From an uncultured Mycoplasmatota bacterium (GTDB taxonomy: Bacteria; Bacillota_I; Bacilli_A; RF39; UBA660), in the NCBI GenBank assembly GCA_947646095.1, contig CANSFI010000005.1, forward strand, positions 6,703-70,702: a DNA stretch of 64,000 nucleotides, given 5' to 3'. The position numbers and the translations under genes were made by a program. Under the pieces are notes generated by a model. It was not told where the DNA came from. It searched no databases and saw nothing but the letters and a program-made list of their open reading frames with translations. Shown here piece after piece: positions 39,934 through 63,080 of the stretch. The number at the start of each line of letters is the position of its first letter. Positions within the stretch are counted from its first letter, which is position 1.

Positions 39934-40099
39934 TTCTTATTCTTTAAACGAAGTAATAAACTTTACTAAAGGTGATTCAATGACTGAAAATATAGAAATT
40001 TTTAACTTTGATGCCAAAGGAAATAAAATTGATCCCAAAGAATTAAAAGTAAAAGACAAAGTAATCTATGAGATTATTAAAAAATATATTAAATTGTAA
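39926..40099 (+). CDS. small protein (57 aa) upstream of the serine recombinase; possible TnpW-like or RDF candidate
   Basis: Below the ORF-track cutoff. The ATG overlaps the T4CP stop codon. Product MSSSYSLNEVINFTKGDSMTENIEIFNFDAKGNKIDPKELKVKDKVIYEIIKKYIKL. Confidence 0.35.
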   Translation: MSSSYSLNEVINFTKGDSMTENIEIFNFDAKGNKIDPKELKVKDKVIYEIIKKYIKL

Positions 40100-40192
40100 C
40101 ATGATTTTACTTTTTGTAGAAATCATGCTAGGATGGATTCGTAAGTTTATAGTTCTAAAAAATGCCTTTAAAATGGAAATGGAGGAATACTT

Positions 40193-43345: not shown

Positions 43346-43464
43346 TCTTAGTGCGAGAATAAGAAGTCACTAATATTGTTCAAAATAAATTTCCATATAA
43401 AACACTGCTAGGTTCTAGGAAAACTAGAACTTTTTTAGTATAATTTATATAGAGGTGACTAGCT

Positions 43465-44319: not shown

Positions 44320-44334
44320 GATTAGGGGGATTCA

Positions 44335-45320: not shown

Positions 45321-45336
45321 GATTTGGAGGTAAAAT

Positions 45337-46674: not shown

Positions 46675-46744
46675 AATTTAAGATTTTTGACTTAATTTAA
46701 AAGAAATGAATGATTAATATTATCGTTCGTTTAAAAAATGTCCG

Positions 46745-46832
46745 TTGCATGTCCTAAAAAAATGTGTTAAAATGGTAGTATAGGATAATTGTAAGAAAGA
46801 CTAAATTTAGAGAGATTTTATCTCTCTTTTTT
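46745..46832 (+). ncRNA. candidate small RNA or attenuated leader (promoter plus terminator, ~55-60 nt)
   Basis: TTGCAT (46745-46750), a 17-nt spacer and TAAAAT (46768-46773) with TGT upstream. Perfect 8-bp hairpin AGAGAGAT/ATCTCTCT (46809-46827) plus a T-run. No ORF lies between them. Confidence 0.3.
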
Positions 46833-47007
46833 GTGTTCTATTTTTATTATTCTATCAGAAAGGAGCGTGAAATATGAATGAAATATATCTAAACTGTCGG
46901 AGACTATAATGGGTCTTAGGGACTTTTTCCTAACAAAAAAAGGGTGTGATAACACCATGCTTGATATATTAAAATTATACTATATGTCATAAGACGGAGA
47001 TGATAAT

Positions 47008-47544
47008 TTGAAAAATAAATGGATGTATAGAGATGATGTAGAAAGGAAATTAGGAGTATCAAAAAAACAATTAAATCGTGCTATTAAAGTAATGGAAAAA
47101 TATCATTATTTTGAAAATTGGATTTGGTATAGATTAGGGCCAACTAAAGATTTAATTGTTCTTTTTAATTTAGAATTTGTTGAATGGTTAAAAGAAGTAT
47201 ATTTTAATAAAGATGGATTTTTCTTAGATAGAGAAATTCATTTTTTAAATGCAAGAATTTTAGATATGGAAAATGAATTAGACATTTCTCATTTTGAGAA
47301 GGTTTATTTATGTCTAAATGTAAAGGAACTTCAAGAATATTTTAGTAAAAGTAATAGCTCTATTTTAAAAGCAATTGAAAGAATGAACAAAAAAATAGAT
47401 TGCAAATGCTATAAAGATGGAAAATTGTATATTACTCCTACGGGAGTTAAATGGTTAGATCAAAAATATTATCGAAAATCTTATCTTAAGGTATTATTAA
47501 GCTATAAAAAAATATTAAATAAAAAGGAGAATAAAAATGACTAA
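47008..47544 (+). CDS. hypothetical DNA-binding-like protein
   Basis: TTG start after GGAGATGA. HTH-like LGVSKKQLNRAIKVMEKY. Confidence 0.45.
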   Translation: MKNKWMYRDDVERKLGVSKKQLNRAIKVMEKYHYFENWIWYRLGPTKDLIVLFNLEFVEWLKEVYFNKDGFFLDREIHFLNARILDMENELDISHFEKVYLCLNVKELQEYFSKSNSSILKAIERMNKKIDCKCYKDGKLYITPTGVKWLDQKYYRKSYLKVLLSYKKILNKKENKND

Positions 47545-47932
47545 AGTAGATAGAAGAAAGAAAATAAATATTATGTTAAATGATGAAGAAAGAAGAATAA
47601 TTACAGAAAAAGCAATAGAGTATGGATTTGGTCCACATCTTGCCGCTTATGTTAGAAATGCTTGTATTTATGAATCTTTATATAAAGAAGATATTGAAGG
47701 TAAAAATGAAATAATTAAAATAATGAGTGATTATATTAGTGTTGTTAATAGAATTCAATATGAACAAGGATTGTTAACTAAAAAGATTCTGTTAAGTGAA
47801 GGAGATATACAAATGATTAAAGAAAACAATACTCTTCTTCATAATGAAATAAGAAAATTAATTAAGACAATTGAAAATACATTAACAATTAAACGTGTAA
47901 AAGAGACTAAGCAGAAACTAGAAATAGACTAG
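47537..47932 (+). CDS. MobC-like ribbon-helix-helix protein
   Basis: KINIMLNDEERRIITEKAIEYGFGPHLAAYVRNACI. Confidence 0.5.
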   Translation: MTKVDRRKKINIMLNDEERRIITEKAIEYGFGPHLAAYVRNACIYESLYKEDIEGKNEIIKIMSDYISVVNRIQYEQGLLTKKILLSEGDIQMIKENNTLLHNEIRKLIKTIENTLTIKRVKETKQKLEID

Positions 47933-47945
47933 TTTCTGCTTTTTC
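47911..47945 (+). terminator. rho-independent terminator
   Basis: Perfect 11-bp stem GCAGAAACTAG / CTAGTTTCTGC plus a T-run. Confidence 0.7.
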
Positions 47946-47998
47946 TTAAAGTATTATTTTACAATTTTTCTCATAGTTTTAAATAAAGGAGATGAGTT

Positions 47999-48196
47999 AT
48001 GGATTCAGAGGATATTATGAGAAGTAAAGAAGTAAAATATAAGAATAAAGAAATACTTTTAGAAGTGGCTCTTTCCTTAAATAAAAAGTTGTTTGATGAA
48101 AATAAAATATCATATAAAATGTTTAAATATACAGAAGAAAATATCTTAAAAGAATTAAAAATTTGTAATGTAAGTGGTGCTAATGCTATTTCATGA
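47999..48196 (+). CDS. small protein upstream of the serine recombinase
   Basis: 65-aa ORF after AAAGGAG. It occupies the same position as the small ORFs upstream of the other two LSR genes. Confidence 0.4.
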   Translation: MDSEDIMRSKEVKYKNKEILLEVALSLNKKLFDENKISYKMFKYTEENILKELKICNVSGANAIS

Positions 48197-48233
48197 AAAT
48201 ATGTTATAATGTCGTTAGAAAGGAGAAGAAGAG

Positions 48234-49943
48234 TTGGATTTATATACTGTTCGAAAGCAGTTAAATATGGGAATGCCACTTACAAGTATAAAACTTAGAG
48301 TAACAGATTATGCAAGAGTATCAACAGATCATTTAGAGCAAAAGAAATCTCTTCAAAATCAAGTGGAACATTTTGAACAATATATAAAACAAAATCCAAA
48401 TTGGACTTATATTAAAGGTTATGTAGATGATGGAATAACTGGTACAAGTGATATTAAAAGAGATAACTTTATGAAAATGATTGAAGATGCTAGAAGTGGT
48501 AAATTTGATTTAATTGTTACCAAAGAAATTTCTAGATTTTCAAGAAATACTCTTGATAGTATTAAATATACGAGAGAGCTTTTATCCTATGGAGTGGCTG
48601 TTTTGTTTGTAAATGATAATATTAATACAGCTATGCCCGATTCTGAGCTACGACTTACTATAATGGCTTCTATGGCTCAAGATGAAATAAGACGTTTATC
48701 AGAACGTGTTAAATTTGGTATGAATCGTGCAATAGAACGTGGAGAAATACTTGGTAATGATATGCTCTATGGTTATAAAAAAGATAAGGATACAGGTGTA
48801 CTTAATATTATAGAGAATGAAGCAAAAATAGTCAGGAGAATATATGAACTCTATGCTGTTGAAGAATTATCTCTATCTAAAATTTCAAAAACATTAAATA
48901 GTGAAGGTCTAAAAACTTGTCAAAAGAAAAAATGGTGTATTTCTACAATTTCTAGGATGATAGAAAACCCTAAATATAAAGGATATTATTGTGCTAGAAA
49001 ATCAGAAATAATAGATTATATGACTAAAAAGATAAAATATTTTGAAAAAGATGATTGGGTTATTTATGAAGATAAATCAAGAATACCACCAATTGTTAAT
49101 GAAGATTTGTGGAAAAGAGCTAATACTCGTTTAATGACAAGAAAAAAAGCATTTGTGATGAGAAAAAAAGATAAAAGTATTTATAAAAATAGATACTTAT
49201 ATAGTGCTAAAATTTATTGTGCAGAGCATAATACAGTCTTTCATAGAAGAGAGTTTAGAAAAAATAAAAAAGATATTACTTGGGTTTGCTCAGAATACTT
49301 AAAAAATGGTAAAACTACTTGTGATTCACCTAATATTAGAGAATCAGAGTTAGATTCAATTTTTAAAGATTTAATATCTAAACTACAAATTGATTCAAAT
49401 GAAGTTATTGATACTCTAATGAATTATTATAAACATTTAGAAGTTGATAATGGAATTGATGAAGAAATTAAATGTTTAGAAAAAGAAATAAATAGTCTTT
49501 ATGTTAAGAAGGATAAGATATTAGAGTTAAGTATCCAGGGCGGTTTATCTAACGAGGAGTTTTATGAAAGAAATAATTTATTTAATGATAAAATAAATAT
49601 GCTCACTAAAGAGTTAAAACATTTTAAAGAAGATAAAGAAAATTTAAAAGGAACAACTGATAAAACTAAAGAACTTCAAGAACTTTTAAATTTCAAAGTT
49701 AATTCTAAATCTACTATAACTAAAATAATTAGTTCACTATTAGATCATATTGTCGTATCTAAAATAAATAATGATAAAAATAACATGGAATTAAATATAT
49801 TTTTATCTTACAAAGAAAGTGATGAAAATAAAAAACTACAACCAATTTTAAGAAGTAGTTATGAATTTAAAAGAGGATATGACACACAAGGAACTAAAAG
49901 ATATAAAGTCTATTACCAAGTGAATTGTTATTTTTGTCTATAA
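48234..49943 (+). CDS. large serine recombinase (element A)
   Basis: DYARVSTDHLEQKKSLQNQ, ISRFSRNT, a recombinase domain, a Cys-containing zinc-ribbon region and a coiled-coil. The start may be TTG 48234 or ATG 48267. Confidence 0.85.
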   Translation: MDLYTVRKQLNMGMPLTSIKLRVTDYARVSTDHLEQKKSLQNQVEHFEQYIKQNPNWTYIKGYVDDGITGTSDIKRDNFMKMIEDARSGKFDLIVTKEISRFSRNTLDSIKYTRELLSYGVAVLFVNDNINTAMPDSELRLTIMASMAQDEIRRLSERVKFGMNRAIERGEILGNDMLYGYKKDKDTGVLNIIENEAKIVRRIYELYAVEELSLSKISKTLNSEGLKTCQKKKWCISTISRMIENPKYKGYYCARKSEIIDYMTKKIKYFEKDDWVIYEDKSRIPPIVNEDLWKRANTRLMTRKKAFVMRKKDKSIYKNRYLYSAKIYCAEHNTVFHRREFRKNKKDITWVCSEYLKNGKTTCDSPNIRESELDSIFKDLISKLQIDSNEVIDTLMNYYKHLEVDNGIDEEIKCLEKEINSLYVKKDKILELSIQGGLSNEEFYERNNLFNDKINMLTKELKHFKEDKENLKGTTDKTKELQELLNFKVNSKSTITKIISSLLDHIVVSKINNDKNNMELNIFLSYKESDENKKLQPILRSSYEFKRGYDTQGTKRYKVYYQVNCYFCL

Positions 49944-49990
49944 ATTAGACTTATAATTTTTCACTTGGAGACTTCATTCCCTTACACTAA

Positions 49991-50142
49991 GTTCAAATAA
50001 TGTAACAAAGTCTCCTGTTCCTCCTACAAATGCTCCTTGCATAGCAGCAAATGCAATACTAGTATCAATAACTAAATCTTGCTTAGGGTCAATACCATTT
50101 TCTTTTAATGCCCATTCTAATGTCATTTCTGGCATTCCACCT
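49991..50142 (-). pseudogene. ABC substrate-binding protein, middle fragment between elements A and B
   Basis: Manual reverse translation gives GGMPEMTLEWALKENGIDPKQDLVIDTSIAFAAMQGAFVGGTGDFVTLFE. It bridges ...GGRKG (62647..) and PNALQVEK... (..43341). Confidence 0.85.
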
Positions 50143-50165
50143 CATCGGATACCAAACTTATAATG
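50139..50165. repeat. left junction of element B: core ACCT plus terminal inverted repeat
   Basis: ACCT is at 50139-50142 and again at 62643-62646. CATCGGATACCAAACTTATAATG (50143-50165) matches the reverse complement of 62621-62642 at about 18 of 22 positions. Confidence 0.75.
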
Positions 50166-50235
50166 TAAAAAATGCTTATAAAATAAGGGAAAGGTAAAAC
50201 ACATTAACAATAGTTTTTATAAAAATGGTGGAAAA

Positions 50236-51036
50236 ATGGCAAAAAGTAAGTTAGGTATGTCTAGTTTTGATATAGACATCAAGTTTAAGAATAAAGAGGA
50301 AGCACGAAGATATGCGAAAAGAGTACTAGAAAAAATAAGGTATATATGTAATAAAAAGAATTGGTCGGCTACAGCAATGGTATGTATTAGTAATACAAAA
50401 GGTAATAGCACTTATGTACATTATGAACATAATGGAAAGGTTGGTCGTCCTAAAAGGGTAAAAGAAATACACCCTCATAAAAGCAATATAGAGGTCGGTT
50501 GGCACTTACATATTATTATGGCATCAAAACCTTATCATTCATTTAGAGATGAATTAAAAGCATACTTTGATAAGAATTGGTTGGGTTGGAAGAAAAATGT
50601 TAACTTTGATATTACTAAACTATATGGGAAAGGAACATATAAAAAGAATACTAATATTAAAAAAGCGGAATATTTTATTAACCAAGAAGATGAAACATTG
50701 TTTTGTACTTACAATAGTAAAGAGGAGATAGTTATTCCAAAAGGTTATACTTTGAAAGATTTACATAATGCTTATATAAATATGATGACAGCAAGAAGAT
50801 ATGCTAGAACTTATGGAAATGAAAAAAGATTAGCATTAGAAGAAGAATATTATAAGATTGCAGACTTTTATTGGAACATAACAAAGGAACAAGATAAAAA
50901 AATGGTTGATAAGTTTATGAAACAAGCACAGTTAATTAAGATACAAGATAACTACGATATGAGGGAGAAAAATAATAAAGTACAGGAAAATATGAGTTTA
51001 CGCCGAAGAATTGTGGAAGAAAATAGCCCATTTTAA
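50236..51036 (+). CDS. HUH / Y1-transposase-like (IS200/IS605 TnpA-fold) domain protein with C-terminal extension
   Basis: GWHLHIIMASKPYHSFRDELKAYF is an H-u-H motif in the TnpA_IS200 context. KKAEYFINQ resembles the catalytic YIxxQ helix. Confidence 0.35.
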   Translation: MAKSKLGMSSFDIDIKFKNKEEARRYAKRVLEKIRYICNKKNWSATAMVCISNTKGNSTYVHYEHNGKVGRPKRVKEIHPHKSNIEVGWHLHIIMASKPYHSFRDELKAYFDKNWLGWKKNVNFDITKLYGKGTYKKNTNIKKAEYFINQEDETLFCTYNSKEEIVIPKGYTLKDLHNAYINMMTARRYARTYGNEKRLALEEEYYKIADFYWNITKEQDKKMVDKFMKQAQLIKIQDNYDMREKNNKVQENMSLRRRIVEENSPF

Positions 51037-51098
51037 AAGAAATTAAGTAAAAAGTATTAGTAATTATTACCCTCATATAATATACACATATATAATAC

Positions 51099-51181
51099 TA
51101 TATTGATATTAGAATGATATATAGAATAGGACTAGATTAAGAAGATATAAAGTAATATGAGGTGTATATATTGATATTAGA
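51099..51181. repeat. 15-bp perfect direct repeat TATATTGATATTAGA x2
   Basis: Copies at 51099-51113 and 51167-51181, in the intergenic region between convergent genes. Confidence 0.7.
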
Positions 51182-51278
51182 TTTAGGGGTAAAGATAATA
51201 TTGTTAGAAATGAATAACAGTATAGTTCAAGGTAAAATAAAAATGCCATACATTTAAATCATATATAGCATTACAAGT

Positions 51279-51608
51279 TTAATTATCCTTTAAACCATCA
51301 ATGTAGCCCTCTACTTTTGCTTTATTAGTAGTAGATAATGAATTGATTTTATTTAGTAAGATAAAATCGGTATTGGAAATATTATTAGGTTTTACATCAT
51401 CAATAGGCATATTGTATTTAGTTCTACAAAGTAAATAATCAATAGAAGTATTGTAGTAGTTAGCAAGTTTAATAAGCATATCGGAACTTGGAAATACTCT
51501 ACCTGTCTCATAAGAAGATATAGTTTCTTGGGTAATATTTAAATCCATAGCCACTTTTGTTTGTAGTAAGTTTTTAGAGTTTCGTATTTGCTTTAAATTA
51601 TTTTCCAT
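51279..51608 (-). CDS. XRE-family HTH regulator
   Basis: LLQTKVAMDLNITQETISSYETGRVFPS. Confidence 0.75.
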   Translation of the reverse strand: MENNLKQIRNSKNLLQTKVAMDLNITQETISSYETGRVFPSSDMLIKLANYYNTSIDYLLCRTKYNMPIDDVKPNNISNTDFILLNKINSLSTTNKAKVEGYIDGLKDN

Positions 51609-51730
51609 ATATATCGCCCTCCTCTATATATAATTGTAAAGATATTAAAAATTAGTGATAGCAATATTAGTTATATTTATATGTCTTAAATTATATAAAA
51701 TGTGTTATAATGATATTGGTGATTTTATAT

Positions 51731-52633
51731 ATGGAACTTGGAAAATTAGAAAAAATAGAATTAAGAGAAGTTTGGAGGCACGAAGCATTGGATTTTACAA
51801 GGTGGTTAGCTAGAAAAGAAAATATTGCTTTGCTAAGTAAAGAGGTAGGCATTGATATTGAGGTTATAGAAACAGAAATGAGTGTTGGAAGGTATAATGT
51901 TGATATTTATGCAAGAGATACAGAAAGTAATAAAAGAATAGTTATTGAAAACCAATTAGAAAATACTAACCACGACCATTTAGGGAAAATGTTAGTATAT
52001 GCTGCTGGTTTAGATGCCGATATTGCTATATGGGTAGTAAAAGATGTGAATGAAGAACATAGACAAGCAGTTGAATGGTTAAACGATAATAGTTTTGAAA
52101 AGATAAATATATTTTTAGTAAAAGTGGAATTGTGGCAAATAGATAATTCTCCTATTGCTCCTAAGTTTCAAGTAATATGTGAACCTAATAATTGGGCGAA
52201 AGTATTAAAACAGCAATCAAAAGATAATATAAGCGATTTAGAATTAAAACAAATGGAATATTGGCAAGGGTTTGTTGATTATGCAAAAAGTAAAGATAAA
52301 ACATATATTAGTCAACGACCATCAATTTATAATTGGTATGTTATTCGTATTGGCTCAAGCGATTATAAAATTAAATTAGTTCATAGTGTTAATAGCGATA
52401 TGATAAGGTGTCAATTAGAAATATTTAATGATGATATTTATAAAAAGTTGGAACAATATAAAAATGAAATAGATAGTAAGATAAATGGCTTAGAGTGGGA
52501 ATATTTAGAAGATAGAAAAGTTAATAGGATTAGTTGCAGTAATAATAGTAAAGATAATGATAGTTCCTATGTATGGTTGTTAGATATGGTTGATAGATTT
52601 AAAGAGGTATTTCTAGAATATTTGTATAAGTAA
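51731..52633 (+). CDS. PD-(D/E)XK-like nuclease-fold / DUF4268-type protein
   Basis: ELREVWRHEALDFTRWL...VDIYARD...IVIENQLENTNHDHLGKMLVYAAG...IWVV..EHRQAVEWLN matches my memory of the DUF4268 family. ATG 51731 follows GGTGA. Confidence 0.5.
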   Translation: MELGKLEKIELREVWRHEALDFTRWLARKENIALLSKEVGIDIEVIETEMSVGRYNVDIYARDTESNKRIVIENQLENTNHDHLGKMLVYAAGLDADIAIWVVKDVNEEHRQAVEWLNDNSFEKINIFLVKVELWQIDNSPIAPKFQVICEPNNWAKVLKQQSKDNISDLELKQMEYWQGFVDYAKSKDKTYISQRPSIYNWYVIRIGSSDYKIKLVHSVNSDMIRCQLEIFNDDIYKKLEQYKNEIDSKINGLEWEYLEDRKVNRISCSNNSKDNDSSYVWLLDMVDRFKEVFLEYLYK

Positions 52634-52765
52634 GTTTAACGGCGATATTAGGTAAGTTTGGTAGAAATAATATAAATATATTGAGTTAACGAAAAAATAG
52701 TAATAATGCTGAGATAATCGGGAAATAAAGAGGAATAAGTTTTGAAATAGAAAGAGGTATAAGAA

Positions 52766-53368
52766 ATGCAAGATTTATTTTATATGTTATTAGGGGTTGC
52801 AGTTGTAGTATTACCTATTTACTTAATTGTTAAAGCAGTTAAGAATAGAGGTAATAAAGATAAGGTAGTTAAAGATAACTCTATTAAACAAAAAGAGGTA
52901 AAACAAGAAGTAGTTAAAGAAAAGAAAGTAAAAGTGTTGAAATTAAAAGATATTAAACATATTGAGGGTATAAGCAGTTTGCGAGAAGAACAAGATTGTG
53001 CTTTAAATGTAGATGATGAGGTATTAACTGTTATATCGGAAATTGGTAATTTTAATATATCATTAGATAGAATTGTAAATGCAGGTTTAATGAGTAAAAA
53101 GGAAATGGATACTAAAAACAAAAATGTATTTGCAAGATCGTTGGTTGGTGGTATGGTTGGCTTAGGTGCATTAGGAGCAATATCAGGGATAGGTCAAAAA
53201 GTAAAGAATTATTACAATTACTTTTTAGTAATAATTTATAAGGATAAAAACAGCGAAGAAATGAAATCACTTGTATTTGGCTTAGGTAAATATGATGGTA
53301 TGGGTCAGTTGTTTGTAAATAAATTAACGAAAAGATTAAGTACTGAAAAAGTAAACATTGATTTATAG
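52766..53368 (+). CDS. membrane protein with N-terminal TM segment, Lys-rich linker and glycine-zipper segment
   Basis: TM segment LLGVAVVVLPIYLIV and glycine zipper LVGGMVGLGALGAISGIG. It has its own terminator. Confidence 0.5.
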   Translation: MQDLFYMLLGVAVVVLPIYLIVKAVKNRGNKDKVVKDNSIKQKEVKQEVVKEKKVKVLKLKDIKHIEGISSLREEQDCALNVDDEVLTVISEIGNFNISLDRIVNAGLMSKKEMDTKNKNVFARSLVGGMVGLGALGAISGIGQKVKNYYNYFLVIIYKDKNSEEMKSLVFGLGKYDGMGQLFVNKLTKRLSTEKVNIDL

Positions 53369-53385
53369 CAGTATATAGTAGTTCT

Positions 53386-53435
53386 AAGGTAATTTGATAT
53401 AGTTTTGTATAGATTATATTGAATTACCTTTTTTA
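53386..53435 (+). terminator. rho-independent terminator (long loop)
   Basis: Stem AAGGTAATT / AATTACCTT plus a T-run. Confidence 0.45.
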
Positions 53436-53503
53436 ATGAAATATACGAGGAATAAGTAGGTTTTTATAGAGATTTAATATATAATTAAGTTAGGTGGTAT
53501 GCT

Positions 53504-54013
53504 ATGGGGAGTTTAAATATAGTAAGTGGAAACATATTAGAGCATTTAAAAGATAAAGATTTAATAGTAAATAGTGCTAATCAATATATGATTTATGGTA
53601 GTGGTGTCTGTGGTACTATATATAAGAATGCGAATAAAGAATTGTTAAAAGATTATTGTAAACAGCATTATAGAGAGTATATGAACGTAAATGAGGTAAG
53701 AATAACACCTGGTTTTGATTTGGGGATAGATATATTACATATTTACTGCCCTAAGTATTATGAAATGAAATCTCCCCTACAAGATTTATTAGAAAGTTAT
53801 AATAATATATTCCTTTCGGCGAAAAAGAAAAGTTATAAAAGTATTGTGTCAGTTAGTTTAGGTACTGGGGTACACGGTTATAAACATAATGATATAGCAA
53901 AAGATATAGTTGTTAGATTAAATGAATTAGTAAAAGAATACGATATTGATTTTACATTGGTATTGCCAAGTGAAGAAACAAAGGAAATATATAGTAGTTT
54001 TCTAGAAGAATAA
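53504..54013 (+). CDS. macro-domain protein
   Basis: Macro motifs VNSANQYMIYGSGVCGTI, ITPGFDLGIDILHIYCP and SVSLGTGVHGY. Confidence 0.75.
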   Translation: MGSLNIVSGNILEHLKDKDLIVNSANQYMIYGSGVCGTIYKNANKELLKDYCKQHYREYMNVNEVRITPGFDLGIDILHIYCPKYYEMKSPLQDLLESYNNIFLSAKKKSYKSIVSVSLGTGVHGYKHNDIAKDIVVRLNELVKEYDIDFTLVLPSEETKEIYSSFLEE

Positions 54014-54048
54014 GGGTTTTTATAGTATAATATTTATTGGTGGTACTT

Positions 54049-55539
54049 ATGTTAGAAAGTATAGATATAGCATTAGCAAATATTTTATATGATGAAATAA
54101 ATGATTATAATTTTTCAAAGTTATATACAGATATATATAGTAACTACGATGAGAGATTAAAATACATTTTTTCTTATTTACATCAAAATCTTAATGAACT
54201 TATAAATTTTATGAATGATAAGAGTAAATCAAATAGTCATTATAATGCGAATGAAAGTCGAGAATTATTATTTATTATAGAAACTATCCAAGAATTACAA
54301 GCAATGCTTAAAAATACTAATTTGGATTTCAGTTTGAATGGGGATTATGAAAGGTTTTTAGAATATTCCGAGACATTTCTATCATCATCAGGTGGTAGTG
54401 AAATTCCAAATGATTATAAAAGATTTACAATAATTAAATATGAACCTATTTTTAGAATGAATAATGATGTAATTATAACGAACAACATAGGCATTACTAA
54501 TTTTAAAACTAAATTAATTGGTAATGGTGCTTATGCCAATGTTCTTTTATATACTGATGAATTTTATAACGAAAAATTTGCTATAAAGAGATTAAAAAAT
54601 AATGTTAGCGATAAAGAAAAAGTAAGATTTAAAAATGAATTTGAAATAATGAGTAAAATAAAACATCCTTATATATTAAAAGTTTATACTTACAACGAGA
54701 AAGATAATAGTTATATAATGGAATATTGTGATTTTACATTAAGAAAATATATTGAAGTAAATAATAATAAATCGGAATTTGATACTAAAAAGCGAAAAAA
54801 AATAGCAATACAATTTTTGATAGCACTAAATTATTTGCATTCTAAAAAAATTTTACATAGGGATATTAGTTATAATAATGTTTTGATAAAATTATATGAT
54901 AATGATATTTTGCTACTGAAATTGTCGGATTTCGGGTTGGTTAAAGACTTGGACTTAGAATTAACAAGAACCGAATCTGAGATTAGAGGAACTTTAATTG
55001 ATGATACATTGACTAGTTTTAAAGATTATAATGTAAAAAATGAAATATATAGTGTTGGTATGATTCTTTACTTTATTTTTACAGGAAGAACGCACCTAAA
55101 AGCCGATGATAGTAATATTTATAATATAGTTTCTAAATGTATAGATAGAGATTTACAAAAAAGATATAATAATATAAATGAAATTATTATAGATGTACAA
55201 AAAATTGGAAATATTGAAAGTAATATAAATGAGATTAGTACTGATTTTATAAGTGAAAAAGCAAAAAAAATATTATTTAGTTGTATTGATAAGGATGGCT
55301 TTATGTACACAGAAAATTCAAAGTATCAACAAGAATTTATTTGTGGTACATTGAAATTAAATTTTGGTGAAATATCTATAAGAGAAAAAGCCGAATGGAT
55401 TAGTGCCATAGAAGAATTAGAGAAAAAAGGTTATATAGTTGGTCATAAAGAAAATTCTAGTTTTTATGATGATGATTTTGATAATACTTATGAAGTTATG
55501 AAAAAAGGATTTGATTATTATGATAAACATAATAATTAA
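54049..55539 (+). CDS. Ser/Thr protein-kinase-domain protein with unknown N- and C-terminal domains
   Basis: G-loop GNGAYANV, catalytic Lys in FAIKRL, HRDISYNNVL and SDFGL. ATG 54049 follows GGTGG. Confidence 0.75.
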   Translation: MLESIDIALANILYDEINDYNFSKLYTDIYSNYDERLKYIFSYLHQNLNELINFMNDKSKSNSHYNANESRELLFIIETIQELQAMLKNTNLDFSLNGDYERFLEYSETFLSSSGGSEIPNDYKRFTIIKYEPIFRMNNDVIITNNIGITNFKTKLIGNGAYANVLLYTDEFYNEKFAIKRLKNNVSDKEKVRFKNEFEIMSKIKHPYILKVYTYNEKDNSYIMEYCDFTLRKYIEVNNNKSEFDTKKRKKIAIQFLIALNYLHSKKILHRDISYNNVLIKLYDNDILLLKLSDFGLVKDLDLELTRTESEIRGTLIDDTLTSFKDYNVKNEIYSVGMILYFIFTGRTHLKADDSNIYNIVSKCIDRDLQKRYNNINEIIIDVQKIGNIESNINEISTDFISEKAKKILFSCIDKDGFMYTENSKYQQEFICGTLKLNFGEISIREKAEWISAIEELEKKGYIVGHKENSSFYDDDFDNTYEVMKKGFDYYDKHNN

Positions 55540-55562
55540 TAAATAGATATGCGAGGTATAAG

Positions 55563-58088
55563 ATGGGATATATTAAAGCAAATTATGAATTAGCAACAAT
55601 GTATAAACAAATAATTGAAGAAAAAAAGAAATTTGGTAAATATCATAAAACAATATTTCATTTACATACTCCTGCTTCCCACGATTTTAGATTATTAAAT
55701 CATTTTAAATATACAAATTATTATAAAGAGTGTAGCGATGATGAAATATATAGTTATGCTAAAAGTGAATTGCCGATGTTAGACAGATTTAATTTTGATT
55801 TTGAAAATAATGATGATATAAAAATGTTTAATTCAAAGAAAGAATTTTTAGCATATTTATTAATTGCAAAGAAATTGGCTGACAATGATATTGAAGTAGT
55901 TTTAGTAACAGACCATAACAATATGAACGGTTATCAAAAATTGCTACAAGCAATTAAAATTTTAAACAATACAATAAAACAAAATACATATACAGAACTT
56001 ATTATGGGAATAGAAATTAGTTGTGCTGATAAAAATCACGTTGTTGGTATTTTTAGTGATAAGGATATTAATATAAATAAAAAAATTAATCAATGGTTAA
56101 AAGAATATATAATGAGCGAAGAAGAAGGAACATATTTAACCAGTTTGGAAGTTATTAAACAAATTGATGAATGGAAAGGAATTCCCTACATTGCTCACTT
56201 TGATAATTCGGATTTTTTTAAAGATTCTAAATTTTTAAATATTGCTTATAAGAAAAAGTTATTTAGTTTAGAAAATTTATGCGTTATTGGTCTTGCTAAT
56301 AAAGAAAATTTAGCAAAAATTTCAAATAGAATAAAAGATTATTCTGATAAAGATTTTTGCTATGTTATAGATGATGATTCACATTCATTAGAAGAAATAG
56401 GAAAAAATAGTTTTTGGTTAAAAGGAAATAATAGAAATTATAATATGGTTATAAGTGCTTTAAGAGATTATAATATTTGTATAGAGTATAATATTCCAAG
56501 AGTTCCACAAAAATATATTAAAGGATTAGTTATTAGAAACAATGGAAAAGGTTTCTTAAAAGGTAAAGATAATAAAGATTTTTGTATATCATTTTCAGAA
56601 TATTTAAATTGTTTTATCGGTGGAAGGGGCACAGGGAAAAGCACTATTATTAATATTATTGAATATACTATTCAGCAAGTGGTAAAAAATGAAAAAATGC
56701 TAGATTTAATTTGTAAGTATAGTTCTATTTGGTTACTTTTTCAAATAAATAATAGGGAATATATGATACAATTATATAATCCACAAAAAGAATATGAAGA
56801 CGACAGTATTTTAAAATGTTTTAGTCCATATAGCCAAAAATATAATTATAAATACAAATTTTATAATGAGCAAATAAAACAATTTTTATTAGAAAGATGC
56901 ATTACAGTTTATGAACTTAAAGAAAGTAAAGGAATTTTATACAGTAAACCAGTTAATAATAAAAGAAAGTATTTAGATGATGTATTTAGCACAGCATATT
57001 CTATAAATGAATTAGTTGAAACTTAAAATAGTAATGAAATAAATGACTATATTTACAATACCTTATTTAAAAATAAAATATTATCATCTGTAAAAAATAC
57101 TATACGCATTAAGTCGATTAATGGATTAAAGAAAAAATTACAAGAAGTTTCTAGCATTAAGGATTTAAGAAAAAAACAAGTAGAAGAAGTTGTAACTAAA
57201 TTTAATGATAGCCAAAAAGGAATATTACAAATTATTTATAAACAAGAAGAAAATAATTTAAATGTTTTGAATATAAAGGAATTGATTTCAAGAAAATATC
57301 CTATAAAGGATAATTATTATTATAAAAAGAAAAACATTTCTACTTTAAGCATAGTAGATTATTTAGAAGCTCTTAATGATAAACTTGGATTGGAGAAAAT
57401 GTTATTATTATTTATTAACAATAGTTATGAAGAATTAGAAAAGACTATGTCTATTAAAACTTTTTTAGAGGAAAAAAATCAAAAATTAATTGATAAGCAA
57501 ATTGAATTTATCAAAGATGATGAATTACTGAAGATTGTAGAATCTATTGTTAAAGATATTATAAATAACGATAATATTCCTACTATAGTTGATAGTTTAA
57601 GAAAATATATAAAAGAAATTGAAAGTTTTGATTTAGAATTCAATATAAATAATAAAGAGCAAAAAGACCAAAAAGTAATATATAAGAGTGTTAGGGAGCT
57701 TTCCCTAGGACAAAAGGTTGTTGCTATGCTGTCATTTGTTTTAGGATTTAGCGATTTTTCTGGTGATTATAGTCCTTTAGTTATAGACCAGCCAGAAGAT
57801 AATTTAGATAATCAATACATTTATAAAAATTTAGTACAAAAATTAAAGGAAATAAAATCAAAAAGACAAATAATTATTGCAACCCATAATGCTACTATTG
57901 TTACAAATGCTAAAGCTGAGCAAGTAATCATAATGGAATCTGATAATATTAATGGTTGGATAAAAACAACTGGATATCCAAATGAAAAAAATATAAAAAC
58001 ACATATTATTAACTATCTTGAGGGTGGAATAGAATCTTTCAAGCATAAGTATTTTATTTATAAAGAAGTAATAGATTATGAAAAATAA
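55563..58088 (+). pseudogene. PHP-domain plus ABC/SMC-like ATPase protein (Ppl-like), interrupted by one in-frame TAA
   Basis: PHP motifs FHLHTPASHD, VTDHNNM, GIEIS and IAHF. Walker A GGRGTGKST, signature-like SLGQKV, Walker [12 protein letters not shown], then ATHN. ORFs 55563..57026 and 57267..58088 share a frame, and the 240 nt between them has no further stop. Confidence 0.7.
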
Positions 58089-58116
58089 ATTTATGTTTAA
58101 AAAAGTATAGGTTTAT

Positions 58117-58152
58117 AAAGATTTAATTTGATTATGAATTAAGTCTTTTTTT
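58117..58152 (+). terminator. rho-independent terminator of the macro-kinase-PHP/ATPase operon
   Basis: 12-bp stem AAAGATTTAATT / AATTAAGTCTTT (one G-U pair) plus a T-run. Confidence 0.6.
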
Positions 58153-58280
58153 ATATTGTTAAGAGTTGTTTATTTGTTTTTTAAATATTTGGAAAGTTTT
58201 ACGACATTTTTAAAGAGAACGGCTCGTATCTTTTTTGAAAGTCATATATTATATATTTTATGGTAAGGAGGTGTCATAAA

Positions 58281-58511
58281 ATGAGAGAAGAAATATTAAG
58301 ACAAATAATTGTAGCAGTATGCGATGGATTTGTTGATACACTATTAACTGGTATTGAAGAATATGAAAAAGATTTTCCCTATACTATTGCCTGTGCTAAT
58401 TTTATAAGTGAGTTAAAAAGCAAAAATATATTAGTTAATTTTTATTCAATATTTGATAGTCATATTGTTGATATGATATTTAGAGAAACAAGTAATTATT
58501 TGGTGAGGTAG
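58281..58511 (+). CDS. hypothetical protein
   Basis: ATG lies 7 nt after AAGGAGGTG. Confidence 0.45.
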   Translation: MREEILRQIIVAVCDGFVDTLLTGIEEYEKDFPYTIACANFISELKSKNILVNFYSIFDSHIVDMIFRETSNYLVR

Positions 58512-58520
58512 GTTTAAAAT

Positions 58521-59123
58521 ATGGAAAGTAAAACTTTTGGCTATGGTAGAGTTAGTAGCAAAGAACAAAACGAGGAAAGACAATTAGTAGCGTTTAGAGA
58601 ATATGGAATTGATGAAAGAGATATTTATATTGATAAGCAAAGCGGTAAAGATTTTAATAGAGAAAATTATATTACATTAAAGCATATATTAAGAGAAAAC
58701 GATTTATTAGTTATTAAGAGTATAGATAGATTAGGAAGAAATTACTCACAGATTATTGAGGAGTGGCAAGATATTACTAAAAATATTAAAGCAGATATAG
58801 TTGTTATTGATATGCCCCTACTTGATACTAGGAAGAATAAAGATTTATTAGGTACATTTATTAGTGATTTAGTATTACAAATATTAAGTTATGTCGCCGA
58901 GCAAGAAAGAACATTTATAAAGCAAAGACAAAGCGAGGGAATTGATATAGCATTAAAAAATGGTACTAAAAGTGGAAAGCCTTTTGGCAGACCCAAAATT
59001 GAAAAACCACAAAATTTTGACATTGTGGTTAGTAAATGGAAAAATAAAGAAATTAAAAGTAAAGAGGCAATGGAATTACTAGGGCTAAAACCTAATACCT
59101 TTTATAATATGGTTAATTCTTAG
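58521..59123 (+). CDS. small serine recombinase (resolvase/invertase)
   Basis: GYGRVSSKEQNEERQ, SIDRLGRN and a C-terminal HTH. 200 aa. Confidence 0.85.
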   Translation: MESKTFGYGRVSSKEQNEERQLVAFREYGIDERDIYIDKQSGKDFNRENYITLKHILRENDLLVIKSIDRLGRNYSQIIEEWQDITKNIKADIVVIDMPLLDTRKNKDLLGTFISDLVLQILSYVAEQERTFIKQRQSEGIDIALKNGTKSGKPFGRPKIEKPQNFDIVVSKWKNKEIKSKEAMELLGLKPNTFYNMVNS

Positions 59124-60115
59124 TATGCCTTCTTTTTTTTGTCTTTAGATAAATACCATTCAATTAACTTTTTTTCATTATTTCTAAATTTACCTTTTGC
59201 TATTTTTTTGTCTTTACGGTATTCTTCTCTTTCTTCTTCTGAAGTATAATTATTATAATATTGGGAATCAATTCTATTTTCTAATATTACAATAGGTTTT
59301 TTATCGTAATTTTTCTTTTGCTCTTTTTGAACAATTTTTCTACAGTAAGGACAATTAAGACAACTTGCGTGAGTATCAACAAAAAAGTTACCACAATTAA
59401 AACAAGTAAATAATTTATAGTCATAGTTTGTAGAAAAAATAATATTAAGAAATGAATATACCAATTCAAGTTCGTTTTTACAAAAAGAAGAATAGGTAAT
59501 TATCATATCAGCATTACTCTCCTTTTGGTTTAGAAATTCTTGATTAAAATCTTTACTGTTAAATTTTATCATCTTATATTTTAATTTGATATTATCAGTT
59601 TTACTATCTTTTTTTATAGAATAACTATCATAGAATAACTTTGAAAGTTGTACTTGGCTATTACTAATACTTCTCTTTTTATCATCATCAAAGCTCGAAT
59701 AATAATTTTGTAATTTTATTATATCTTTATATCTAATATTTGATTTATTAATTTTATCAGCAAGTCTTGTTTCAATGCTTTTTTGTATAGGGTTAATTTT
59801 TATGCTAGAGGTAAATAGAAAATAATTCCATACATCGGAATTTATATAATTTTTTTTAGTTAATGTTAGACTGAATGAGAAAATAGTATCTACTATTTCT
59901 TTTGTTCTTTTTGTTATATTAGAAAAGATACCATTAGAAAAAGGAACATCTACAATAAAAATGCCTTCCTGTGTATCATAATATTCATATTTTATTTCAA
60001 ATTTAGGAATAATATTTTTTTCTTCTTCAGAATAACTGATTTGAATAAAAGGACATATTATTTTAGTTTTAATGTCATAGCATTCTTTATAAAGTAATTG
60101 CATATATACCTCCAT
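59120..60115 (-). CDS. hypothetical protein with C-terminal Cys4 zinc ribbon
   Basis: CFNCGNFF...CLNCPYC. It converges on the resolvase gene with a 4-nt overlap. Confidence 0.5.
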   Translation of the reverse strand: MEVYMQLLYKECYDIKTKIICPFIQISYSEEEKNIIPKFEIKYEYYDTQEGIFIVDVPFSNGIFSNITKRTKEIVDTIFSFSLTLTKKNYINSDVWNYFLFTSSIKINPIQKSIETRLADKINKSNIRYKDIIKLQNYYSSFDDDKKRSISNSQVQLSKLFYDSYSIKKDSKTDNIKLKYKMIKFNSKDFNQEFLNQKESNADMIITYSSFCKNELELVYSFLNIIFSTNYDYKLFTCFNCGNFFVDTHASCLNCPYCRKIVQKEQKKNYDKKPIVILENRIDSQYYNNYTSEEEREEYRKDKKIAKGKFRNNEKKLIEWYLSKDKKKKAY

Positions 60116-60274
60116 AAAATACCGAAATTAAAATCACAAAATAAGTTCGGAAAGTTAGTTTCATTTTATCATATAATCACCTAAAATGGAATTAGTCAAA
60201 GAGAAATTGTAAAAATTTGAAAGTCGACTAAAGATTTCCTTTGATGTAAAAATTACGAAAGAGAGGAAAAAAAT

Positions 60275-60781
60275 ATGTCAAAGAAATTAAAAACAAAAAT
60301 TAAAGAAAGGGTTGTGTTATATGTTTATTATGATGAATGTGAAATAGATTTTGCTTGTGAGAAAGAAAAAATGCTTAGAAAACTTTGCAAGGATAAAAAT
60401 TATGATATTGTTGGTATTTTTAGGAGTCCATATTATTCAGATTTAGAAGGGTTAAGTCCAGATATTAAAACAGTAATGGAAGATGCAAAAAATGAAAAAT
60501 TTGATAGATTCTTATGTTATTCATTAAGAGAAATATCTGATAATGCTGAATTGCAAACAGTAATAGCAAATATTATAGGATTTTGTGGAGTTCCAGTTGA
60601 AACTATAATTGAGGGGAAAATGGATGATGATTTTTTCTTCGCCATATCATTATTTGAAAATTATAATCATAAAGAGGAACTACAAACTAGTAAAAATCCT
60701 TATAAAGCTAGAATAATGTGCGATTTAAATGCTTACCAAATTGAAAAAAGCAATAATGAAATTAAAGGTTTACCATTTTAA
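60275..60781 (+). CDS. non-catalytic resolvase-like domain protein
   Basis: VVLYVYYDECEIDFACEKEK replaces the YxRxS motif, but the overall pattern matches a resolvase N-terminal domain (..DIVGIF...KFDRFLCYSLREISDN). Confidence 0.4.
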   Translation: MSKKLKTKIKERVVLYVYYDECEIDFACEKEKMLRKLCKDKNYDIVGIFRSPYYSDLEGLSPDIKTVMEDAKNEKFDRFLCYSLREISDNAELQTVIANIIGFCGVPVETIIEGKMDDDFFFAISLFENYNHKEELQTSKNPYKARIMCDLNAYQIEKSNNEIKGLPF

Positions 60782-60834
60782 GTCTATAAGTATTATAGAT
60801 TTAATAAAATCATACATTTAACTAGGTGGTATAA

Positions 60835-60939
60835 ATGAAAATAGTTAATGTTTTCGATGATAATGGGAAAACACTACAAGATATTATAGAGCAGTTTCTT
60901 ATTGATTACTGTTTGGAGATTGGTTCTTTCAAAAAATAA
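60835..60939 (+). CDS. small TnpW-like protein (34 aa)
   Basis: Below the ORF-track cutoff. AGGTGG sits 5 nt upstream. Product MKIVNVFDDNGKTLQDIIEQFLIDYCLEIGSFKK. It lies directly upstream of the LSR gene. Confidence 0.35.
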   Translation: MKIVNVFDDNGKTLQDIIEQFLIDYCLEIGSFKK

Positions 60940-60987
60940 TACTATAATATAATTGTTAATGTGTTTTACCAAGAAAGGAGTGGAAAT

Positions 60988-62550
60988 TTGAAAGGTAAGA
61001 CATATAAAACCGCTTTGTATATTAGATTATCTCGAGATGATGGCGATAATATGGAAAGTGAAAGCATTAAAAATCAAAGAGATTTGTTGCAAATGTTCTT
61101 AGAGCAAACAGAAGAAAAACTTTTGTATGTAGATGAATATGTTGATGATGGCTATACCGGTTCTAATTTTAACAGACCTGCTTGGCAAAAACTATTAACA
61201 GATATTGATAGTGGAAAGATAAATACAATTATTACAAAAGATTTATCTCGTATGGGTAGAGACTATATCTCTATGGGGGAATATATTGAAAGAATATTCC
61301 CCGAACGAGGTATAAGATATATTGCTTTAAATGATGACATAGATACATTTTATGAAACACCAGGGTTAGAATTTTTACAATTCAAGTTAATGTTTAATGA
61401 TTACTATTTAAAAGATACATCAAAAAAGATTAGAAAAATAGTAAAAGCGAAAAAAGAAAAAGGACAATTTCTAGGGTGGAAAGCAGTATATGGTTATAAA
61501 AAAGATCCTAATGATAAACATAAAATAATTGTAGATGAGGAAGTTAGACCTATTATTGAAAGAATGTTTAACCTAGTAATAGAGGGTAAAAGTCCAAGAC
61601 AAATAGCAAATATATTCTCTGATGAGCATATTCCAACACCTAGTGTTTATGCTAATCTAAATAGAGGTATGAAATCCACAGCATATGAATTATGGTGTCC
61701 TAGAACTATTGAAGAAATGCTTACCAATGAAACATATATAGGAAATCTTACACAAGGAAGAAGAAGAAAATTAAACTATAAATCTAAGAAAGAAATTAGA
61801 ACCCCTAAGGAAGAATGGATTATAACTGAAAATACCCACGAACCAATTATTGATAAAAAGGTATTTAACACAGTGCAAGACTTATTAAAAAAGAATAAGA
61901 ATAAACCAACTGGCAATAATATTCAATTACTTTCTGGCTTTATGGTATGTAAAGAATGCGGACACGCAATAGGAATAAATAAAAGTAGCGATGGCAAAAG
62001 AAAATATTGTTGTTGTACTTATTATATTTCACATAGTAAATATGGCTTATGTACTCCACATAGTTGTAATTATGATAAATTGGAAAATGCTATATTAGAA
62101 GAAATTAAAAAAATGTGTACTGAATATGTAGATAGTAGTACATTTAAGGACAAAGTAGATGAAGCGAAGAAGAAAAATGATATTAGAGTTAAACTACAAA
62201 AAGAAATCAACATATTAGATAGAAAAGTTAGTAGTAATCTATCCTATATTGATAAAGTATATGAAGACAAGTTAAAAGGCGACATTGATATAGAAATGTT
62301 TAATCGTTTAACTATCAAATATAAAGAAGAAATAGAACAATGGAAAAGCAAGAAATCAGAGTTTGAATTAGAACTTAATAATATTGATAAAGAAGATACT
62401 AATAAGGAAAAAGAAGAAATACTAAAAAAGATAAACGAATATTTATCTTTTGAAAAACCAAATAGAAATTTATTAGTTAATCTAATTGATAAGATACTTA
62501 TTAGTGAAGATAAAACAGTAGAAATACATTATAAATTTAAACTGGCATAA
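60988..62550 (+). CDS. large serine recombinase (element B)
   Basis: ALYIRLSRDDGDNMESESIKNQ, DLSRMGRD, recombinase and zinc-ribbon (CKECGH...CC) domains and a coiled-coil. TTG 60988 lies about 7 nt after the AGGAG core of AAAGGAGTGG. Confidence 0.85.
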   Translation: MKGKTYKTALYIRLSRDDGDNMESESIKNQRDLLQMFLEQTEEKLLYVDEYVDDGYTGSNFNRPAWQKLLTDIDSGKINTIITKDLSRMGRDYISMGEYIERIFPERGIRYIALNDDIDTFYETPGLEFLQFKLMFNDYYLKDTSKKIRKIVKAKKEKGQFLGWKAVYGYKKDPNDKHKIIVDEEVRPIIERMFNLVIEGKSPRQIANIFSDEHIPTPSVYANLNRGMKSTAYELWCPRTIEEMLTNETYIGNLTQGRRRKLNYKSKKEIRTPKEEWIITENTHEPIIDKKVFNTVQDLLKKNKNKPTGNNIQLLSGFMVCKECGHAIGINKSSDGKRKYCCCTYYISHSKYGLCTPHSCNYDKLENAILEEIKKMCTEYVDSSTFKDKVDEAKKKNDIRVKLQKEINILDRKVSSNLSYIDKVYEDKLKGDIDIEMFNRLTIKYKEEIEQWKSKKSEFELELNNIDKEDTNKEKEEILKKINEYLSFEKPNRNLLVNLIDKILISEDKTVEIHYKFKLA

Positions 62551-62620
62551 TATTATAAGTTTTAAATCCGAGGGGCTTTTCGGCAGTAGAACTTATGATA
62601 TTTTTTTTAATAAAATTTTT

Positions 62621-62646
62621 ATCATAAGTTTACCATCCGATGACCT
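62621..62646. repeat. right junction of element B: terminal inverted repeat plus core ACCT
   Basis: ATCATAAGTTTACCATCCGATG (62621-62642), then ACCT (62643-62646). Confidence 0.75.
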
Positions 62647-63080
62647 TTTCTACCACCAATAACATATTTTCCTTTTAAATCTTCTAGTTTAAAATTATCA
62701 TATTTTTTTCTAGATACTAGAAAGCTACCATCTCTTTTTGTAAGTCCTGAAAAATTTACTAAATAATCCTTTTCTCCTTGATTATAAACATAAATTGTTG
62801 CTTCACTTCCACAAAAACCGATTTGAACATCATCTGAAAGTACTGCAGCTGTTACCTTATCTGCTCCAGGTACTAACATAATTTCAACATCTAAACCCTC
62901 TTTTTCAAAATATCCTAATGCGTCTGCCACATATTGTGGAGCATAAAATACACTATGAGTTACCTCAGCTACTTTAACTTTCTTTAAATTACTATCTTCT
63001 TTATTAAATTTAATTAATATAAAACCTACAATTAATAAAACTAAAACAATAATAGGAATAATTATCTTTTTCAAATTCAT
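62622..63080 (-). pseudogene. ABC substrate-binding protein (NMT1/THI5-like), 5' fragment
   Basis: Signal-anchor, then ...VTHSVFYAPQYVADALGYFEKEGLDVE...GKYVIGGRKG|. The host part is 62643..63080; the last six codons (HRMVNL) and the stop come from element B. Confidence 0.85.

Follow-up and report, generated by a model that had tools for sequence, protein, structure and literature searches.

A macrodomain gene, a Hanks-type kinase gene and a PHP-ATPase pseudogene probably stacked as independent defence-type cargo of a serine-recombinase element

Three closely packed genes were analysed at positions 53504 to 58088 of a 64,000-nucleotide stretch of contig CANSFI010000005.1 from an uncultured Mycoplasmatota bacterium; the whole stretch is called the window. 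The genes encode a macrodomain protein (macro), a Hanks-type Ser/Thr kinase and a protein in which a PHP phosphoesterase is joined to an ABC/SMC-type ATPase, and they lie in an integrative element of approximately 12.5 kb with a large serine recombinase. An initial annotation, made from the DNA letters alone, had taken the three genes for a candidate coupled defence system with the macro as antitoxin or reverser. The genes were found without each other in related DNA, and they therefore look like separate cargo genes and not like one system. The region is most likely the cargo slot of the element, where independent and mostly single-gene defence-type modules are stacked under one promoter, and not an obligate three-part system. 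Each gene belongs or is related to a known kind, namely the MacroD-type macrodomains, the Stk2/PD-T4-6-like kinases and the Ppl-like PHP-ATPases that NCBI names Spaf_1101. The features of the cluster are listed below.

53386 to 53435, plus strand: intrinsic terminator 1, which closes the upstream gene for a protein of 200 amino acids (aa); the promoter and ribosome-binding site (RBS) region of the macro-kinase-ATPase unit follows it
53504 to 54013, plus strand: MacroD-type macrodomain protein, 169 aa, Pfam Macro
54049 to 55539, plus strand: Hanks-type Ser/Thr kinase, 496 aa, Pfam Pkinase, database protein P0001
55563 to 58088, plus strand: Spaf_1101-family PHP phosphoesterase plus ABC/SMC-type ATPase, a pseudogene in the window, 94% identical to the intact 841-aa protein P0121
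57024 to 57026, plus strand: nonsense change of codon 488 in the ATPase frame, TCA (Ser) to TAA, which divides the ATPase into a Walker A half and a signature/Walker B half
58117 to 58152, plus strand: intrinsic terminator 2, which ends the transcription unit

The arrangement first described, three co-directional genes between two terminators with gaps of at most 35 nt, was confirmed by the open reading frames (ORFs) and by folding. The three same-strand ORFs lie between two hairpins that are each followed by a U-run, and the intergenic gaps were found to be 35 nt between macro and kinase and 23 nt between kinase and ATPase when the kinase start is taken as ATG 54049. This is the most likely start, with the RBS GGTGGT 6 nt upstream and a product identical to P0001; the mechanical ORF start of the frame is TTG 54037. 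The terminator 1 hairpin (53386-53430) has a 20-bp stem with a folding energy of -18.9 kcal/mol (z = -6.0), and none of 200 shuffled sequences was equally good. The terminator 2 hairpin (58117-58148) has a 13-bp stem (-9.6 kcal/mol, z = -2.3) followed by U7. No terminator was reported in the region by a consensus scan because that scan demands at least three G-C pairs and the DNA is approximately 25% G+C; the terminators were judged by folding in its place. Folding of both intergenic spacers revealed no structure in either. The flanking terminators and the unstructured internal spacers make a single transcription unit plausible, and the macro, kinase and ATPase genes are probably co-transcribed. 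A perfect TATAAT box was also observed in the 35-nt macro-kinase spacer (54014-54048), at approximately 54026-54031, and it is kept in the related loci L030, L031 and L003 (loci of relatives are given by L numbers). This box could be an internal promoter from which the kinase is expressed without the macro.

The macro protein matched Pfam Macro at 1.6e-16 (60.7 bits compared to a cutoff of 22), and its closest solved relative was the Oceanobacillus MacroD-type macrodomain 5lcc (1e-12). The ADP-ribose-binding signature that had been read in the 169-aa protein was borne out, with VNSAN, GSGV and SLGTGVHGY aligning to the ADP-ribose-binding loops of 5lcc; the protein has both the macro fold and the loops (NxxN, GxGV, GTGxxG) of the MacroD type. 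In the same alignment Cys and Tyr stand where MacroD1/YmdB have the Asp and His that are proposed to be catalytic. Resemblance to DarG was weak, with an NCBIfam DarG score of 20.8 bits compared to a cutoff of 250 and a PADLOC DarG macro-domain match of 5.9e-5. A profile search of the operon and neighbouring proteins found no ADP-ribosyltransferase (ART) domain in or beside the operon. By family resemblance, the macro protein would be an ADP-ribose hydrolase.

The kinase is laid out as a helical N-terminal domain (N-domain, residues 1 to approximately 150), a kinase core (approximately 155-390) and a C-terminal domain of approximately 95 aa. It matched Pfam Pkinase at 3.1e-36 and the PADLOC models mad6, Stk2 and PD-T4-6 at 3.9e-36, 2.7e-31 and 3.2e-30, respectively. 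G158, G160, K180, E197, HRD 270-272, N277 and DFG 294-296 were conserved across 68 kinase relatives, and by residues, Pkinase profile and fold the Hanks core is catalytically complete. An AlphaFold2 model of the full-length protein had a predicted local distance difference test score (pLDDT) of 86.8, and its kinase domain matched Staphylococcus aureus Stk1/PknB at the top; the fold search with this model matched kinase domains only. The N-domain is strongly conserved across the kinase family, and its own model reached a pLDDT of 90 and a predicted template modelling score (pTM) of 0.83. The two domains flanking the core had been left without an assignment at the outset, and searches with them gave the following: no fold match to the N-domain in PDB or BFVD better than E = 0.6 (best E values of 1.2 and 0.6, respectively), no sequence relatives of the N-domain detected beyond its own family, and no Stk2 match to the C-terminal part.

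A solitary gene for an N-domain plus kinase protein was found on approximately 100 plasmids (62 from Campylobacter, mostly conjugative, and 28 from Lactococcus), and such a protein is also carried by a Bacillus phage. The family membership of the kinase is plain, and by analogy with its relatives the kinase would be a stand-alone, Stk2-like single-gene module. The plasmid and phage kinases are annotated as 'protein kinase family protein' only. In all three records inspected for this, namely L210 (Lactococcus cremoris pF27A), L211 (a Campylobacter jejuni plasmid) and L212 (Bacillus phage PHBA67-T), a gene for a small serine recombinase or invertase was seen beside the kinase gene or close to it.

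The third gene has 841 codons and lies in an 843-codon frame (55563-58091) with a single in-frame TAA at codon 488, and Pfam gave a weak PHP match (7.6e-4, below the gathering score) plus AAA_15/SMC_N/AAA_21. The intact protein P0121 scored 901.6 bits on NF045781 'Spaf_1101 family AAA-like ATPase' (cutoff 475), which it covered at positions 2-835 of 836, compared to 221.8 bits on TrlF (cutoff 350) and 150.3 bits on Ppl_antiphage (cutoff 1000), on which only the termini aligned. The PADLOC Ppl match on the ATPase was 111 bits of partial coverage, with both ends matched. The PHP metal ligands H33, H35, D41, H118, E151, H159, H212, D272 and H274 were invariant in 15 family members, and Walker A, the ABC signature LSLGQK, Walker B and the H-loop were invariant in the Spaf_1101 family alignment. 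A sequence search against solved structures returned weak Rad50 matches only and no Ppl-like structure, and the literature found for the name 'Spaf_1101' was the S. parasanguinis genome paper only. The assignments of the initial annotation to a macro, a complete kinase core and a PHP plus ABC/SMC-type ATPase were thus upheld by Pfam, NCBIfam and residue conservation. Its comparison of the third protein with Ppl agreed with the architecture; the sequence scored below the Ppl_antiphage cutoff. Judged by these profiles, the third gene has the architecture of Ppl but is a distant relative and not a Ppl orthologue.

The TAA in the third gene had also been pointed out at the outset, and it proved to be a true mutation. 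Compared to the sister elements L030 and L031, it is a single C>A change in the TCA codon of Ser488. Split products of 487 aa and 273 aa are recorded from more than one assembly, and their recurrence in other assemblies rules out a sequencing error. Synonymous and non-synonymous differences were similar on either side of the TAA, with no non-synonymous excess downstream, and the inactivation of the ATPase is therefore recent. An intact 841-aa ATPase gene is present in L218, an element of identical gene order. An intact NF045781 member would encode both ATPase halves in one uninterrupted frame; the window copy is interrupted and is a genuine pseudogene.

The three genes might still form one integrated defence system in which the macro serves as antitoxin, reverser or regulator, since a single transcription unit, with terminators on either side, includes all three at spacings of 35 and 23 nt, and closely related elements in several metagenome assemblies have the whole triad intact. 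In a multi-gene system, adjacency is expected to persist across divergent homologues and unrelated backbones. The triad failed in this respect, as it was found only where all three proteins were at least 87% identical to those of the window.

Macro relatives of 71-91% identity had neither the kinase nor the PHP-ATPase in 16 of 16 sampled loci (L019-L029, L213-L217). In these relatives (84-91% identity in Romboutsia and others, and 71%) the backbone is shared and the place of the macro in it is unchanged, the order being DUF4268, 200 aa, macro, slot, 76 aa, resolvase; the gene before the macro encodes a membrane protein of 200-214 aa, and the 76-aa gene and a small resolvase gene come after. 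The slot following the macro was empty or contained a 143-aa gene or two reverse-strand genes. These findings show that the macro is a common gene of the element family and not a partner specific to the kinase or the ATPase. Across a family of serine-recombinase elements of approximately 10-13 kb, macrodomain genes of 71-95% identity (293 protein clusters) were found repeatedly, and the slot can also hold the kinase and the ATPase.

Spaf_1101 was likewise found alone. A copy of 79% identity is present in the same element family (L015/L016) in the order glycine-zipper gene, 78-aa gene, Spaf_1101, a copy of 78% identity occurs in an unrelated context (L017), and none of the relatives of 78-79% identity (L015-L018) had a kinase or macro. 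When metagenome and viral contigs were scanned with the family alignment, 134 related PHP/ABC ATPase loci were found, 25 of them strong, and no Hanks kinase or macro of this kind lay within 6 kb of any of the strong loci (0/25) or of the total (0/134).

For the kinase, a scan of one genome per species gave 45 loci spanning Bacillota, Actinomycetota, Saccharimonadales, Bacteroidota and others. Neither partner was present in 43 of these; the ATPase was found only in L030 and L031, and the macro only in L030. Clustering of the flanking ORFs (three genes on either side) revealed no orthologous neighbour recurring across lineages. Among the 77 immediately adjacent neighbours, no Pfam family was seen more than twice and neither Macro nor PHP was seen at all; these neighbours include Type ISP, MmeI and Mrr restriction genes, type IV secretion system (T4SS) coupling proteins and a resolvase.

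Close relatives of the element showed the macro being lost beside an intact kinase. In L031, where kinase and ATPase are 92% identical to those of the window and intact, the macro ORF has been cleanly deleted; at the junction the upstream terminator, leader and RBS are fused to the last approximately 15 macro codons across a short GGTAT repeat, and the order is XRE, kinase, Spaf_1101. In L003/L004, with an intact kinase of 91% identity, only the last 74 macro codons are left, in decayed form with G to D and G to V changes in the phosphate-binding loop, and the order is glycine-zipper gene, macro remnant, kinase. Loss of the macro while the kinase stays intact indicates that the macro is dispensable for the kinase and argues against an antitoxin or obligate partner. 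Moreover, since the same terminator and leader stand before the kinase in L031, transcription of the downstream genes probably starts at the promoter ahead of the macro. In the window, intact macro and kinase genes stand beside an ATPase pseudogene, and the operon has no ADP-ribosyltransferase for the macro to oppose. Independent assortment already largely refutes the three-gene model, which we regard as very improbable: homologues co-occur only in near-identical copies of the element, contrary to what the initial annotation had proposed. No named multi-gene system corresponds to the triad; the triad itself is judged not to be a system.

A smaller unit was also weighed, namely a two-gene module of kinase and Spaf_1101 that entered the element behind an unrelated macro, with the kinase for example sensing for or regulating the nuclease-ATPase. 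The two genes are adjacent, with a gap of 12-23 nt, in every element having both, including L031 after macro loss, and elements without the pair have either no gene or other cargo in the slot that separates the macro from the 76-aa gene, which fits a joint acquisition. In contrast, the 79%-identical Spaf_1101 of the same element family has no kinase and the 78% copy lies elsewhere, no Hanks kinase was found near any of the 134 PHP-ATPase loci, the 43 other kinase loci have no PHP-ATPase, the plasmid kinases are solitary, and in the window an intact kinase persists beside the pseudogenised ATPase. We consider a two-gene module improbable.

The neighbouring features of the element are listed below.

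50136 to 62621, no strand assigned: integrative element of approximately 12.5 kb, which interrupts a gene for an NMT1-family ABC substrate-binding protein
51710 to 52633, plus strand: DUF4268 protein, the PADLOC candidate single-gene defence PDC-S11, Pfam DUF4268 4.4e-20
52766 to 53368, plus strand: 200-aa predicted membrane protein, usually directly before the macro in the element family

The location of the genes on an integrative element, proposed at the outset, was supported by fragments of the host gene at both ends and by recurrence of the backbone and of the same insertion gene in L009, L015 and L218 (metagenome and metagenome-assembled genome contigs). The gene order is 266-aa protein, XRE (minus strand), DUF4268, 200-aa membrane protein, macro, kinase and Spaf_1101, followed by an 83-aa gene, a small resolvase (58521-59123), a 331-aa gene (minus strand), a 168-aa gene and the large serine recombinase (60961-62550). 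The DUF4268 protein noted earlier on the element matched PADLOC PDC-S11 over its full length (2.1e-102, 340.7 bits) and is a candidate further defence-type cargo module; the XRE regulator was likewise confirmed. The glycine-zipper membrane protein of the initial annotation was supported only indirectly. The 200-aa window protein had no Pfam match, PF27000 PH_gly_zipper was found in larger relatives from L003 and L015, and the window protein itself matched PHROG 17658 at 1.1e-15 and showed weak similarity to the PH_gly_zipper proteins of L015/L016. Copies of 92-98% identity lie directly upstream of the macro in L019-L029.

The first gene of the element (50236-51036) encodes the conserved 266-aa protein, for which no Pfam, NCBIfam, PADLOC or PHROG match was found; it contains an H-x-H-like motif, WHLHII, that might mark an HUH-type Rep or relaxase. 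The host NMT1-family gene lies in three pieces on the minus strand (42932-43303, 49974-50135 and 62622-63080), two different large-serine-recombinase elements being inserted at two sites of it. The other element (approximately 43304-49973) carries an alpha/beta hydrolase, RhuM, a DUF3419-like protein and a recombinase at 48234-49943. Further upstream is another mobile region (29949-41539), whose gene identities were read by eye from translations: a 435-aa relaxase-like protein, a tyrosine recombinase, a ribosomal-protection GTPase of the tet(M)/TetP type (33571-35493), a DNA methyltransferase, a VirD4-like coupling protein (37906-39933) and a 5'-truncated serine recombinase (40370-41539). A megablast of the 4.8-kb region against plasmid and phage collections gave no matches.

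If the region is a cargo slot with stacked modules, the genes may act as follows. The macro protein would most likely remove ADP-ribose marks in a way that helps the element or its host, for instance against an attack based on ADP-ribosyltransferases, much as orphan phage macrodomains counter DarT. The kinase would be inactive until its N-domain, likely a sensor, meets an infection cue, and once activated it may phosphorylate host proteins broadly and so lead to growth arrest or abortive infection, by analogy with Stk2. Spaf_1101, by analogy with Ppl, would degrade invading DNA from its 3' ends, the PHP part being a 3'-5' exonuclease whose activity the nucleotide-binding ATPase part gates. In the window only the macro, the kinase and the upstream PDC-S11 could still function, the ATPase having been inactivated by the change from TCA to TAA. 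Each of the three mechanisms is proposed from family resemblance, next to an anatomy and an assortment pattern that were observed directly.

Several observations weigh against stacked, independent defence modules. The genes are closely packed, with spacers of 35 and 23 nt, and apparently co-transcribed, and the full triad is intact in several assemblies (L009/L010/L012, L030, L218), so that some functional interplay in this lineage is possible. The profile matches behind the defence assignments do not reach the curated cutoffs of Ppl, DarG and MADS, and the role of the macro is one that we infer. The PADLOC Stk2 alignment on the full-length kinase spans residues 43-414, and neither the N-domain alone (1-150) nor the C-terminal part (391-496) matched PADLOC Stk2 at E <= 0.01. 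Finally, kinase relatives of 49-60% identity (L002, L005-L007) sit within a polysaccharide or glycan biosynthesis cluster. That cluster contains an ABC2 transporter, glycosyltransferases and acyltransferases, and a conserved 424-425-aa protein without a Pfam match is always encoded upstream of the kinase. Such surroundings are unexpected for a defence kinase.

The genes could instead serve no defence at all but the life cycle of the element or the physiology of the host. The macro would then deacetylate O-acetyl-ADP-ribose, the kinase would have a regulatory role, and the PHP-ATPase would take part in repair or segregation. The generic NCBI names ('protein kinase family protein', 'chromosome segregation protein SMC'), the kinase relatives in glycan-synthesis clusters and the fact that the related PHP-ATPase TrlF belongs to a temperature-restriction operon of Photorhabdus are in line with this. 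However, all of these genes but the macro lie in a variable cargo slot and not in the conserved backbone, they are spread over plasmids, prophages and integrative elements in many phyla, restriction genes are abundant among their neighbours, they match PADLOC defence models, and their turnover by deletion, decay and nonsense mutation is fast, as is typical of defence cargo. A role outside defence is therefore quite improbable in our judgement. The defence context suggested by the initial annotation is plausible, given the PDC-S11 neighbour and the kinase matches to the Stk2, PD-T4-6 and mad6 models.

Two further readings, taken jointly, are unlikely although they deserve some weight: that the macro is the element's own counter-defence gene or regulator with a defence-capturing hotspot downstream, and that the kinase represents a large single-gene defence family. 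In the first, serine-recombinase elements of approximately 10-13 kb from gut Bacillota would make up a family not described before, almost all of whose members have the macro, and interchangeable defence genes would be captured at a dedicated hotspot immediately after it. In the second, the kinase would be a candidate for a large unrecognised defence family, distinct from Stk2 and equipped with an N-terminal sensor domain for which no relatives are detectable, on pTet-type Campylobacter plasmids and Lactococcus dairy plasmids. A weaker idea of coupling is that the macro might tune the co-transcribed kinase in this one lineage.

As one system, the three genes would be a new defence architecture joining ADP-ribose removal, phosphorylation and a nuclease-ATPase. 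As independent cargo, the explanation that we favour, they would be a case of ordinary stacking of defence-type genes in the slot of a small element, and such stacking makes tight operon packing alone a poor criterion for a new multi-gene system. For Gram-positive bacteria, we put forward the Spaf_1101 family as a candidate for a single-gene defence of the Ppl-like type. The analysis also brings to light a widespread plasmid- and element-borne kinase family with a structurally unmatched N-domain and outlines a family of serine-recombinase elements in which a macrodomain gene recurs and cargo is exchanged at one site.

Among known systems, MADS resembles the cluster at the level of domains only. 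The best PADLOC match of the kinase core is mad6, and the ATPase matches mad3 (1.6e-12 for the C-terminal part in the window and 7.4e-14 for intact P0121). In contrast, the NCBIfam scores were 62.8 bits compared to 460 for MADS6 and 16.7 bits compared to 420 for MADS3, and no methyltransferase or other mad gene was found in the operon, nor a methyltransferase in the element cargo. MADS membership, considered on account of the mad6, mad3 and mad8 matches, is ruled out by these cutoffs and the absent partner genes. The TrlF literature on the Photorhabdus operon was also considered and has little bearing on the window gene, whose intact homologue P0121 scores below the TrlF cutoff.

Orphan phage macrodomains are reported to counter DarT (PMC11825919, PMC11481870). 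Like them, the macro is a small stand-alone macrodomain on a mobile element with weak similarity to DarG. In contrast to DarTG, no DarT or other ADP-ribosyltransferase is adjacent to it, and its closest solved relative, 5lcc, is a MacroD-type O-acetyl-ADP-ribose hydrolase and not a DNA ADP-ribosyl glycohydrolase. Membership in DarTG was rejected for want of DarT and because of the weak DarG score.

Ppl of Escherichia coli is a single-gene system whose product is a single-stranded DNA 3'-5' exonuclease that is inhibited by NTP and senses 3'-OH ends (PMC12904381). The third gene resembles it in the N-terminal PHP with conserved metal ligands, in the ABC/SMC-type ATPase split by a long insert, and in occurring as a single gene on mobile elements, with Spaf_1101 relatives lacking kinase and macro. 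It differs in belonging to NF045781 Spaf_1101, in a middle part of approximately 400 residues that does not align to Ppl and, for the window copy, in the nonsense codon.

Stk2 is likewise encoded by a single gene; it is activated by a phage protein and kills through phosphorylation of host proteins (PMC6532042). Like Stk2 and PD-T4-6, the kinase is a soluble Hanks-type protein that lacks both PASTA and transmembrane segments, is encoded by a single gene, has approximately 130-150 residues ahead of the kinase core and an extra C-terminal region, and is carried on an element moved by serine recombinases. Unlike Stk2, its family is far wider, reaching Actinomycetota, Saccharimonadales and the plasmids of Campylobacter and Lactococcus, and its Stk2 score stems from the kinase core, the N-domain alone having no Stk2 match.

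The element as a whole can be compared to SCC/SCCmec, the cassette in which Stk2 is located and which is mobilised by Ccr recombinases (PMC11470126). The window element has other recombinases, an NMT1-family substrate-binding gene and not rlmH as its insertion site, a backbone of the 266-aa protein, XRE, the 76-aa gene and the small resolvase, and an uncultured low-GC Bacillota as its host. Both are nevertheless small elements mobilised by serine recombinases that insert at a fixed chromosomal gene, stand in tandem and carry interchangeable defence cargo that includes a kinase (PMC11470126).

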